A stretch of 20,000 bases of DNA, taken from an uncultured virus (IMG/VR IMGVR_UViG_3300037755_000799) (Duplodnaviria; Heunggongvirae; Uroviricota; Caudoviricetes). Below the pieces are notes generated by a model. That model had not been told where the DNA came from. It saw nothing but the letters and a program-made list of their open reading frames with translations, and did no database searches. Positions 9,480 to 16,439 of the stretch are shown piece by piece. How positions within the stretch are numbered: position 1 is the first letter of the stretch; each line of letters opens with the position of its first letter. The stretch is taken from the IMG/VR virus record IMGVR_UViG_3300037755_000799; one strand, given 5' to 3'. The translations under genes and the position numbers were made by a program.

Positions 9480-10415
9480 GTGGCCACACCACCAGGCGCG
9501 GCGAGGTTCGCGCAGTTGTTCCGCGATGAGGGTCTGACCGTTGTCGAGGTCGGCGACTGGCGCCACCACAACCGTAACCATGTCGGTGCGTGGGGTCCGG
9601 TGCACGGCGTGATGATCCACCACACCGTCACCTCCGGCTCGGCTCGCACCGTGCAGATCTGCCGCGATGGATACGTGAAGCTCCCCGGACCTTTGTGCCA
9701 CGGCGTGATCACCAAGGACGGCCGCGTGCATCTGGTCGGCTACGGGCGCACCAACCACGCCGGCTCCGGTGACCCTGACGTCCTGGCCGCGGTCATCGCC
9801 GAGCGCGCACTGCCCGCGGACAACGAGGCGAACACCGACGGCAACGCCCGCTTCTACGGCTTCGAGTGCGAGAACCTCGGCGACGGCCGCGACCCGTGGC
9901 CGGAAGCCCAGTTGGAGGCCATCGAGAAGGTGTCCGCGGCGATCTGCCGGCATCACGACTGGGGCGCGGGCTCGGTGATCGGGCACTTGGAGTGGCAGCC
10001 GGGGAAGGTCGATCCGCGCGGTTTCTCCATGCAGACGATGCGCGGCCGTATCGCGGCACGTCTCGACGGCAACCAGCAGCAAGAGGAGGACGACATGCAG
10101 CTCGACGACGAGGTGAAGCTGAACCAGTGGATACTGGACCGCTGGCCGGATGATCTGGGGATTCAGGACGGCAGCATCCTGGTGCGCACCGCGCTCGGCT
10201 CCGGGTACGCGCACGCCCGTACAGCATCGACGCTCGCCCGGGTGGCCGCCTCCAACAGCGAGAAGATCCTCACCCAGTTGGCCGCGCAGGGTTCGGTTGC
10301 GCTGACGGACGCACAGCTGGCCGTACTCGCCGACAAGGTGGCCGCGCACCCGGTGCTGGCGGAGCAGATCGCGGAGCGGGTGGCTGCGAAGCTCGCGGAG
10401 AGGCTCGCCGAGTGA
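9480..10415 (+). CDS. Endolysin, N-acetylmuramoyl-L-alanine amidase (Amidase_2 type), 311 aa
   Basis: GVMIHHT, LPGPLCH, GRTNHAG, FYGFECEN and VIGHLEWQPGKVDP Zn-amidase motifs; first gene of the lysis cassette. Confidence 0.92.
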   Translation: MATPPGAARFAQLFRDEGLTVVEVGDWRHHNRNHVGAWGPVHGVMIHHTVTSGSARTVQICRDGYVKLPGPLCHGVITKDGRVHLVGYGRTNHAGSGDPDVLAAVIAERALPADNEANTDGNARFYGFECENLGDGRDPWPEAQLEAIEKVSAAICRHHDWGAGSVIGHLEWQPGKVDPRGFSMQTMRGRIAARLDGNQQQEEDDMQLDDEVKLNQWILDRWPDDLGIQDGSILVRTALGSGYAHARTASTLARVAASNSEKILTQLAAQGSVALTDAQLAVLADKVAAHPVLAEQIAERVAAKLAERLAE

Positions 10416-10981
10416 CCGCGATTGATTACGACTGCGAGTTCTCCACTACCGCCCCCGTGATCGACCTCGTGTCGATTGCTCTCGCGGCGGATGACGGCCG
10501 TGAGTACTACGCGATCGTCAAGGACTGCAACTTCGATGCGCTGCTCGACAGCGACTGGCTGATGGCCAACGTGGTACCCACGCTTCCCCTCGGGCTTGGC
10601 CATGACGGTGTGGGCCGCATCCTCGCCTGGGACCCCGATCTGCCGGACTTCGACAAGGTGAAGCCCCGCGAGCAGATCGCCCGGGAAGTGCAGAGCTTCG
10701 TTCTCGGCACCGACGCCGAGCAGATCCCGTACGTCGAACTCTGGGCCAACTACGGCGCATACGACCATGTCGCCCTGTGTCAGCTCTTCGGCTCGATGAT
10801 CGATCTGCCGGAGGGGTTCCCGATGTGGACCAACGACATTCAGCAGGAACGGGCCCGGCTCGGTCTCGCCTGGGACGAACTCCCGAAGCAGGAGAGCGGC
10901 GAGCACAACGCGCTGGCGGACGCCCGCCACAACCGAACCGTCCGGCGCTGGCTCGCCGAACAGGAAGCGAGAACGTCATGA
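10412..10981 (+). CDS. DEDDh 3'-5' exoribonuclease (Rv2179c / RNase AS-like), 189 aa
   Basis: YDCEF (ExoI), WANYGAYDHVALCQLFGSMIDLP (ExoII) and HNALADA (ExoIII with His) motifs; 4-bp overlaps with both neighbours. Confidence 0.85.
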   Translation: MTAIDYDCEFSTTAPVIDLVSIALAADDGREYYAIVKDCNFDALLDSDWLMANVVPTLPLGLGHDGVGRILAWDPDLPDFDKVKPREQIAREVQSFVLGTDAEQIPYVELWANYGAYDHVALCQLFGSMIDLPEGFPMWTNDIQQERARLGLAWDELPKQESGEHNALADARHNRTVRRWLAEQEARTS

Positions 10982-11623: not shown

Positions 11624-12288
11624 CGCGGGCGGAGCGTGCCTTGTATCGCAGTCGGCACATGCTGTGGATCACGGCTGCGCTGCTGTTCCTCGGCGGGCTG
11701 GTGCTGCTGTCGCTGCTGTTGATCGGCCGGGAGGTGGATGCGCGTCAGCAGCTCGCGCATGAGGCCGGCTTGCGGGGGGAGGCGGTGTCGGTGTTGGCGG
11801 GTGATGTGCGGGCACTGCGGCAGCAGTTGGAAGCGGAGGGTGAGACGCCGGTGGCGCCGGACCCTAGCCGGGCGGTGGAGGGTTTACCGGATCGGGTGGA
11901 GGTTCCGGTGCCGATCCCGGGACCGCGGGGTGTACGGGGTCCGAGGGGGGAGCCTGGGAAGCCCGCGCCTACGATCACGCCGAGCCCGGGACCGTCCGGT
12001 CCGGCGGGGAAGGACGGCGCGGACTCCGCCGTCCCCGGCCCTGCCGGGCCTGCAGGTCCTCCTGGTGTGGACTCCACCGTCCCGGGTCCTCAGGGGGAGC
12101 GTGGGGAGAAGGGCGATACCGGGGAGCGTGGAGCGGCCGGGCCTTCGTGTCCGGAGGGGTATTCGCTGCAGGCGCCGTCGTACGACCCGGATGCGTTGGT
12201 GTGCCGTCGTGATGGTGCGCCGGATCCGGGTGAGCCGGGGGGTTCGCAGGCTGCGGCGTTGGATCCGCAGCGGCGTCAGTACGTGTAG
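11620..12288 (+). CDS. Membrane-anchored collagen-like (Gly-X-Y) protein, 222 aa
   Basis: GTGA overlap; N-terminal TM segment, coiled coil, [15 protein letters not shown] / [10 protein letters not shown] / [20 protein letters not shown] triplets, then a C-x17-C pair. Confidence 0.8.
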
Positions 12289-12372: not shown

Positions 12373-12418
12373 GCCCTCGTCGTCGCTCTCGGAGCAGGCG
12401 GCGGGGGCCGTTCTTGTT
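12373..12418 (+). terminator. Probable intrinsic terminator of late/lysis operon
   Basis: GCCCTCGTCGTCGCTC-TCG-GAGCAGGCGGCGGGGGC stem-loop (G-U pairs, one bulge) followed by CGTTCTTGTT. Confidence 0.65.
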
Positions 12419-12435: not shown

Positions 12436-12494
12436 GTGTAGCGCGCTTGACATTCCGCCATCGATGCGGGAGTCTATGTGTAGCGCGCTACACA
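12436..12494 (+). promoter_or_regulatory. Promoter (TTGACA-17-GAGTCT) flanked by two palindromic operators
   Basis: TTGACA 12447-12452, GAGTCT 12470-12475; perfect 18-bp palindrome TGTGTAGCGCGCTACACA 12477-12494; imperfect copy GTGTAGCGCGCTTGACA 12436-12452 overlapping the -35. Confidence 0.75.
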
Positions 12495-12520
12495 AGGTGG
12501 CGTCAGGGAGGAGACCCACC

Positions 12521-13045
12521 ATGCAGGCCACCATCGCCGACATCCGCCGGGGCGACCGCTTCACCCGACTGACCGGACGCGGCGGCACCTACATCGCCCT
12601 TCGCGCAGCCAAGGGCGCGCATGGGGCCCGTGGCCCGAAGAGCCGCGTCATCGTCGTTGACGACCAGAATGATCAGCGTGGCCCCGACGGAGTGATCGAC
12701 CTTGGCAACCAGGCCGACCGCAAGGCCCACATCATCGACCCCCCGTCGGACACGCCGGTCGAGATCCACGAGCGAGGCCTGAACCTCCACCACGAGTCCG
12801 ACGACCCGCTGCCCTTCACCGACACCCCCAACCCGCACCTCGCCAACAAGACCGACAGGGAGTCGGAGGCGGACAGGCTGCGGGAGCACATCCCCAACGT
12901 CGTTGGGCAGATCGCAAATCTGGGCAGTGAGCGCGACGTCCTCATCAAGCAGGCTCTCGCCGCAGGCGTCTCCGTCATCGAGCTTGCGGGGCTGACCGAC
13001 CTGAGCCGAGCCCGTATCTACCAGATCCGCGACGGCCGCCGCTGA
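12521..13045 (+). CDS. Two-domain protein: unknown N-terminal domain plus C-terminal HTH (Aca-like autoregulator candidate), 174 aa
   Basis: GGGAGGAG RBS before ATG 12521; C-terminus RDVLIKQALAAGVSVIELAGLTDLSRARIYQIRDGRR is a helix-turn-helix; own promoter and operators upstream. Confidence 0.8.
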   Translation: MQATIADIRRGDRFTRLTGRGGTYIALRAAKGAHGARGPKSRVIVVDDQNDQRGPDGVIDLGNQADRKAHIIDPPSDTPVEIHERGLNLHHESDDPLPFTDTPNPHLANKTDRESEADRLREHIPNVVGQIANLGSERDVLIKQALAAGVSVIELAGLTDLSRARIYQIRDGRR

Positions 13046-13094
13046 ACCGCTAACAGCGGCAACGCGCGGACGCTACGCTCCTCCGAGTCGGGTC

Positions 13095-13184
13095 GCGTTG
13101 TCCGCGCGAGCGGATGTGAACCATGGGCTGCCCCGTGGGGCTCGACGAGTTGAGGTAGCTCTCCGCGCGAGCGGAGGTAGACGG
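13095..13184 (+). CRISPR. Type I-E-like CRISPR mini-array: two 29-nt repeats and one 32-nt spacer, no cas genes in window
   Basis: R1 13095-13123 GCGTTGTCCGCGCGAGCGGATGTGAACCA; spacer 13124-13155 TGGGCTGCCCCGTGGGGCTCGACGAGTTGAGG; R2 13156-13184 TAGCTCTCCGCGCGAGCGGAGGTAGACGG. Identical 14-nt hairpin core TCCGC-GCGA-GCGGA at a 61-nt period, the type I-E geometry. Confidence 0.85.
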
Positions 13185-13215
13185 GCCCCTGGAGACGGGG
13201 GCCTTCGTCGTCTGC
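13184..13215 (+). terminator. Terminator-like hairpin closing the mini-array transcript
   Basis: GGCCCC-TGGAGACG-GGGGCC stem immediately after repeat 2, followed by TTCGTCGTCT. Confidence 0.55.
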
Positions 13216-16328: not shown

Positions 16329-16439
16329 CCTGCCGCCACGCTGATCAGCGAAGATCCCCGAGCGTAACCCACCCCTCTGGCATACCTTGGCGCCTGACAA
16401 CCTCCACGAGAGAGATGTGTCCCGCGCTACCCTCAACCC

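Follow-up and report, generated by a model that had tools for sequence, protein, structure and literature searches.

A two-repeat CRISPR-like unit carried by the virus studied here is most probably a Cracr-type RNA, that is, a prophage copy of a host's autoregulatory CreR guide through which Cascade would be made to repress casA. What speaks for this is the sequence of the unit, its conservation, the match of its guide to a target and the presence of a counterpart in the host.

The window, by which we mean the whole stretch of 20,000 nucleotides that was analysed, has the look of a prophage from a host of Streptomyces type: it carries genes for tail proteins, for an amidase, for HTH repressors and for a serine recombinase, and also a collagen-repeat gene that ends at 12288; those close relatives that bear names all come from Streptomyces. 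The cassette that holds the unit has lysis genes on one side and regulatory genes on the other. No cas gene was found among the ORFs scanned in the window, and the unit lies on a mobile element outside a CRISPR-cas locus, as Cracrs do. An Rfam search of the window returned no family. Elsewhere, at 10412-10981, there is a 3'-5' exoribonuclease-like gene (PF16473) with the amidase and a holin-like gene on either side. The initial annotation had described a cassette with a promoter, operators, an HTH-fusion gene, a mini-array and hairpins; this cassette is real, and all its parts could be located:

12373..12412, plus strand: GC-rich hairpin, a possible terminator after the lysis module (-32.1 kcal/mol, z -2.79)
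12436..12451, no strand: operator 1, an imperfect 16-bp palindrome over the -35, present also before HTH relatives with other N-terminal domains
12447..12475, plus strand: promoter, with -35 TTGACA at 12447-12452, a 17-nt spacer and -10 GAGTCT at 12470-12475 (weak, of the form NANNNT)
12478..12493, no strand: operator 2, a perfect 16-bp palindrome directly past the -10, seen in the sequence
12521..13045, plus strand: ORF of a 174-aa protein, predicted to form an SH3/KOW-like beta barrel (about residues 1-96), a long helix and a C-terminal HTH
13074..13079, plus strand: -10-like box TANNNT, 13 nt 5' of the leader helix, probably the RNA's promoter
13087..13094, plus strand: leader able to pair with spacer positions 16-23 (13139-13146), with 97.9% of cells paired over 6 sequences
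13095..13123, plus strand: degenerate type I-E repeat 1, 23/29 identical to the host array repeat, its last 8 nt being the 5' handle
13124..13155, plus strand: spacer-like guide of 32 nt that matches, over its first 19 nt, a site with an AAG PAM some 190 nt 5' of casA
13156..13184, plus strand: degenerate type I-E repeat 2, 24/29 identical, with an intact stem-loop whose stem is invariant in 6/6 units
13180..13209, plus strand: conserved hairpin closing the unit, likely a terminator (-22.9 kcal/mol, z -2.31), kept in 6/6 units

Both flanking hairpins have weak U tails, and a consensus scanner run on the window called neither the TTGACA promoter nor either terminator. For the insulating terminator proposed upstream of the gene, the hairpin itself is found, but besides its weak U tail it is not clearly kept in all homolog loci: by eye, a comparable one stands in L001 and L016 and is not clear in L002, L017 and L040.

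The repeats lie 61 nt apart, the first beginning 49 nt past the stop codon of the 174-aa gene. Set beside the most frequent repeat in a type I-E array of Streptomyces (L192), the first has 6 and the second 5 differences over 29 positions, meaning that the spacer is surrounded by repeat-like units of the host's subtype, as in a Cracr. Five further phage loci (L001, L016, L017, L040 and L031) have kept the unit, and in the first three of these it comprises two repeats, a related spacer and a terminator. All six units retain the stems, the handle, the -10-like box and the terminator, while the linkers drift. In L031 and L038 the unit stands behind an unrelated gene pair, in the same position past the collagen-repeat gene, and from these arrangements it appears to have moved between operons. 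The middle bases of the TANNNT box vary among the six phage units and no -35 is evident; since the box keeps the same 13-nt offset in all of them, the RNA probably has its own promoter, and this conserved box suggests that the array could be transcribed independently of the operator-controlled one. The annotation that placed the array on the gene's strand, a short distance past it, was right; one correction is that the array probably has its own promoter at 13074-13079. A BLAST search with the unit found nothing in GenBank phages, and in plasmids it returned array repeats only.

Several comparable units were seen along the way. In one locus (L129:2357-2958), an acidic 126-aa gene and a small DNA-binding gene lie 5' of the same mini-array, with another promoter. 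A viral contig carries a two-repeat unit of the same repeat family with an unrelated spacer (L047, around 1500, minus strand), and two phage-borne degenerate I-E arrays (L030, L037) have several units, a mixture of two repeat families and a closing terminator, and are probably multiplexed Cracr arrays; no target for the units of L030, L037 or L047 was found among 69 casA regions (best 12/15). Isolated two-repeat units of the same family, with no cas gene evident nearby, occur in G062 (L087:15355-15445) and G312 (L089:16387-16477). Finally, L019:3150-3190 contains a Racr candidate, an I-E-like repeat of another family that stands alone immediately after an HTH relative whose N-terminal domain is acidic.

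A target could be found for the guide. Every sixth base of a type I-E guide is flipped out, and we scored matches over the 15 non-flipped positions, counting a wobble as half. Behind an AAG PAM, 18 of the first 19 nt match a site near position 217884 of NZ_CP107864.1 (a S. europaeiscabiei plasmid), in a complete I-E operon, between the genes annotated as cas3 and casA; the only mismatch falls at position 12, which is flipped out, and all 15 non-flipped positions match. The flipping rule is stated for type I-F in the main text of an earlier study (bioRxiv 10.1101/2023.03.03.530964). The locus was reached through the intergenic region of a second host, G328 (for which BLAST gave one homologous region), and through CasA, not through the window's spacer. 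Among 1,422 AAG/AAC sites from the upstream regions of 69 casA genes, this target scores best, with 11/15 for the runner-up, and shifting the register of the guide by one base either way gives 11/15 at best. None of 5,000 shuffled guides reached 15 over 728 PAM sites, none of 13,322 mock guides taken from the window did so over 1,422 sites, and the analytic chance of such a match is about 6e-4 per genome. As with Cracrs, then, the PAM-flanked partial target is found at a cas (or creT) promoter: it adjoins a TANNNT box where the casA promoter is predicted. The full match stands in only one of the 69 casA upstream regions, and a looser target pattern was found in 2 of 401 Streptomyces genomes, one of them outside any cas locus, against 2 control matches. 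Uninterrupted seed matches in three cognate loci were non-PAM noise only. The guide of L040 fits a variant target in G328 (14/15); for that of L001 no target was found among the 69 casA regions (best 10/15), and the L001 genome gave no CasA match. The idea of host CRISPR turned into a phage-programmed repressor is supported by this PAM-flanked target at the predicted casA promoter.

The host side of the circuit could be recognised as well. Arrays of the window's repeat family were found in a few of 401 Streptomyces genomes. In the cas3-casA gap of G328, where the identity of the two flanking genes was confirmed, a degenerate repeat antisense to the operon is followed by a phage-like spacer and, farther on, by an AAG-flanked match. 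Similar degenerate repeat-spacer units, antisense and just upstream of casA, are present in 11 of 30 genomic casA loci (drawn from 56 genomes with a match), and 3 of 12 plasmid casA loci (from 38 records) have a matching unit. Ten of the eleven genomic units match their own region at 12.5-14.5 of 15 positions, behind AAG (nine) or AAC (one), and the spacer of the host units is different at every locus, in step with the target there. Of 13 targets, 8 have a TANNNT box on the casA strand no more than 14 nt from the PAM, versus 17 of 354 other sites. CreR-like units with AAG-, AAC- or TAG-flanked targets are thus counted in 13 of 42 streptomycete casA regions (within L099-L128, L133, L142 and L143), and the predicted host layout is the CreR layout. 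Several of the streptomycete units have a CACAAT box just before repeat 1. The host unit at the NZ_CP107864.1 locus (L133) scores 13/15 on its own site and has 19 nt identical with the window (the 8-nt handle and 11 spacer nt), and 31 identical with the phage unit of L017. According to the main text that defines them, Cracrs have at least 9 PAM-proximal nt in common with a host CreR or CreA spacer (bioRxiv 10.1101/2024.10.29.618823), and here 11 spacer nt are common with L133. An extra base near position 12 of the window's guide extends its run to 19 nt, against 12 in the host unit and in L016, L017 and L031.

From these sequences we infer transcription, processing, loading and repression, and likewise the binding of the operators. 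Transcription would take place in the lysogen or upon infection, starting at the RNA's own -10-like box, perhaps with a contribution from read-through, and the host's Cas6e would cut the transcript; the host's type I-E Cascade would take up the product and be guided by it to the AAG-flanked site adjoining the -10 box of the casA promoter. Pairing would end after about 19 nt, which is not enough to license Cas3, and Cascade would stay bound and repress its own operon, with the RNA also competing with immune crRNAs and displacing them. The HTH of the upstream gene, for its part, would repress its own promoter via the two palindromes. Host CreR, as its main text presents it, resembles the window's unit in having two degenerate repeats and an AAG-flanked target upstream of casA; its partial match represses without any Cas3 block, and in the I-E test a 15-nt match sufficed, with 8.6-fold repression (bioRxiv 10.1101/2023.03.10.532045). 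It differs in lying within the cas locus as described there, whereas the window's unit is in a prophage with no cas gene. Because a 19-nt partial match should, on this precedent, repress without cleavage, the Cas3 block that had been suggested for the N-terminal domain of the protein would be unnecessary.

A host spacer may even be aimed back at the unit. A scan of 386 family genomes with the handle and seed gave matches in G328 and G653, and the match in G653 (L194:1492-1523) is a 32-nt spacer in a 47-repeat array of another repeat family that copies the junction of the mini-array. It is identical to L031 and L017 at 31 of 32 positions, to L016 and L040 at 30 and to the L133 host unit at 29. 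The PAM beside the match is AAG in L001, L016, L031 and L040 and CAG in L017; the window has GAG there and departs from the spacer at spacer position 5 as well. As the spacer is closer to the phage units (31/32, with AAG in L031) than to that of L133, a phage unit is its likelier source, and our guess would be that the window and L017 escape from it. When 192 host spacers were compared with the window, none came within 6 mismatches; three 27/33 host-spacer matches to L001, L002 and L019 were too weak to count.

The 174-aa gene upstream of the unit tells a different part of the story. Its structure model is confident (pLDDT 93), and the C-terminal HTH matches phrog_686 over residues 115-172 (E 4.5e-8), with a fold resembling KorB/Spo0J (Z 5.9-6.3). 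The nearest fold to the barrel is EF-P domain I (Z 7.2, rmsd 2.9, 65 aligned residues), at a level that is common according to the tool. Searches of Pfam, NCBIfam, PADLOC and PDB sequences gave nothing significant, PHROGs gave the HTH alone, Foldseek found no match at E <= 0.001 in PDB or BFVD, and an Atlas search yielded no usable feature match, its structure rows falling below threshold. The N-terminal part, first taken to span some 110 residues, is indeed a separate domain fused to the HTH, with its extent corrected to about residues 1-96. The family is small, with 42 matches in one search and, in another, 16 clusters at E up to 1e-30 and then many HTH-only matches. Full-length homologs occur in just 2 of 401 Streptomyces genomes, so that any count of the linkage between gene and array stays small.

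The promoter-operator layout is common to all 14 related loci compared, these having been selected since the operator had already been seen there, and the sequence of the 17-nt spacer varies freely. An operator-like motif precedes 11 of 18 HTH-only relatives, which have other, often acidic, N-terminal domains, and the full layout is present in 10; L129, with a different HTH, has a different promoter. As the operator pair precedes HTH relatives with other N-terminal domains, the operators belong to the HTH, and on this comparison they track it and not the array. Promoter and HTH would thus form a self-repressing module with swappable N-terminal cargo, acting through presumed operator binding. 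As in Aca systems, an HTH gene has inverted repeats over its own promoter that travel with the HTH, which is what Aca-like autorepression through these palindromes, proposed at the outset, led one to expect; a survey of neighbourhoods for swapped N-terminal domains likewise found the same operator pair and HTH before other N-terminal domains. Like Aca repressors and Acr-HTH fusions, the window has a CRISPR-like RNA adjacent to such a gene; its protein differs from them in its SH3/KOW-like barrel, and general family, PDB and fold searches gave no sequence or fold match to any named Acr or Aca, nor is a known acr gene found in its vicinity. As separate observations, the genes in L003, L004, L006, L011, L019-L023 and L147, which have the operator pair and HTH with swapped and often acidic N-terminal domains, are candidate anti-defence genes, and an operator-like 16-mer with 3 mismatches, likely a chance occurrence, stands at 16417-16432 of the window, just 5' of the serine recombinase gene.

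Could protein and RNA work together? AcrIF24 is an Acr-HTH fusion. By analogy with it, the barrel could be an SH3-like anti-CRISPR acting against I-E Cascade or Cas3, with the RNA cancelling the rebound in host cas expression; such cooperation, a possibility that we regard as somewhat improbable, adds to the Cracr explanation and does not displace it. The survey of homolog neighbourhoods that had been suggested bore out an association: a protein search gave four loci with a full-length homolog, and in three of them (L001, L016, L017) the array lies directly 3' of the gene; it also follows the full-length homolog of L040, found by the array pattern, with linkage persisting down to 34% protein identity. 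Set against this, no array unit was found within 300 nt of the stop codon in 29 HTH-only loci (best 11/29 mismatches; some of these loci are near-duplicates, and L024 was excluded since its contig ends at the stop). A module that exchanges N-terminal cargo recalls anti-defence operons, and in the main text of the Cracr study 21 of 58 I-F cracr genes adjoin acrIF24, the RNA there cancelling the host's rebound in cas expression (bioRxiv 10.1101/2024.10.29.618823). On the other side, the earlier view of the domain as a Cascade/Cas3 modulator found no support in structure prediction, which gave a generic SH3/KOW-like barrel (fold matches Z <= 7.2), or in the family and fold searches named above, which matched no anti-CRISPR family or solved anti-CRISPR structure; linkage alone ties the barrel to Cas proteins, and it may be plain co-inheritance among few related phages. 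Nor is there support for protein and RNA as an obligate pair, since L002 has a full-length homolog without the array, and L031 has the array behind an unrelated two-gene operon without the gene. On the preferred reading the gene is accessory, a usual yet not necessary neighbour of the array; it can reasonably be put forward as a candidate for a new anti-CRISPR protein against type I-E. We also consider, as a rather unlikely elaboration, a two-layer cassette of Streptomyces phages against type I-E in which an undescribed SH3-fold anti-CRISPR fused to its own repressor would be joined by a guide that out-pairs host CreR (19 versus 12 nt), its repeat loop and seed changing to escape host spacers directed at the RNA gene, as the PAM and position-5 differences of the window and the PAM of L017 would suggest.

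A quite unlikely alternative is that the RNA is a Racr-type sponge for Cas6e or Cas7 that never binds DNA, the promoter match being a trace of its CreR origin. Its folding is in keeping with this: the guide is folded with the leader and with itself, leader helix and guide hairpin being compatible with all six sequences, and both repeat hairpins are intact; the handle and seed of the predicted mature RNA form a hairpin, as in several host units. The guide of L001, moreover, has no known target. The covariation of the leader helix, however, was not above that of shuffles (77/500, with 6 sequences), the phage guides vary at positions 6 and 11-12, leaving the seed intact, and the window's guide has lengthened its pairing with the target where the host unit and three phage units stop at 12 nt. 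Racrs, in the main text describing them, are repeat-derived phage RNAs and, as here, can lie directly behind an anti-defence-like gene, but they are solitary repeats that act by sequestration and have no DNA target or target-matching spacer, whereas the window's unit has two repeats and a target (PMC10651486). That the unit is a captured and silent relic of host CreR is very improbable. The target is rare, and in the window alone the base of the stem of repeat 1 has changed from C-G to G-U, adjoining the expected Cas6e cut, which could lower processing; yet a silent copy would hardly agree with parts kept in all six units amid drifting linkers, or with movement between operons. The rare target, this stem change, the hairpin of handle and seed, and the L001 guide with no target found also weigh against the Cracr reading. 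Hardly credible, and largely refuted, is the idea of a mini-array directed at some other mobile element, in conflict between phages or for superinfection exclusion: the spacers of viral mini-arrays do mostly target other viruses, according to the main text of bioRxiv 10.1101/2023.03.03.530964, but this one is conserved across phages and not variable, searches of IMG/VR, of GenBank phages (best E 3) and of the window gave it no PAM-flanked match, and its best match is in a cas promoter.

The preferred reading, that of a Cracr copied from host CreR, places the unit in a recently described kind. Cracrs have been defined, with one I-E array validated in Salmonella and Actinomycetota among the hosts, in a study whose main text presents CracrIE1 of a Salmonella prophage with degenerate I-E repeats, a CreR-like spacer and a partial PAM-proximal match to the casA promoter, as in the window (bioRxiv 10.1101/2024.10.29.618823). 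CracrIE1 as described there is an array of 2-3 spacers, which are shortened, in contrast to the one full 32-nt spacer of the window; the window's unit differs also in its Streptomyces host, in its other I-E repeat family, in being known from sequence and in having a host spacer against it. Viral regulatory mini-arrays, again going by the main text, also copy the seeds of host mini-arrays, aim at cas8 promoters, and are found in anti-defence loci and in unrelated prophages, as here; the named cases are I-B and I-F1, unlike the window, and two actinobacterial ones are given without a confident target (bioRxiv 10.1101/2023.03.03.530964). We found no Streptomyces Cracr in the main texts or in our searches, and supplementary tables may list one. 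The window's unit would be a further Cracr, of which the predicted parts are unusually complete: guide, target, host model and counter-spacer.

What emerges is a complete and testable Streptomyces circuit, made of a phage guide, its exact promoter target, the host guide on which it is modelled and a host spacer directed against it. The CreR-type autoregulation predicted in nearly a third of the streptomycete casA regions bears on genome editing with native I-E systems, and also on the persistence of prophages in such hosts.
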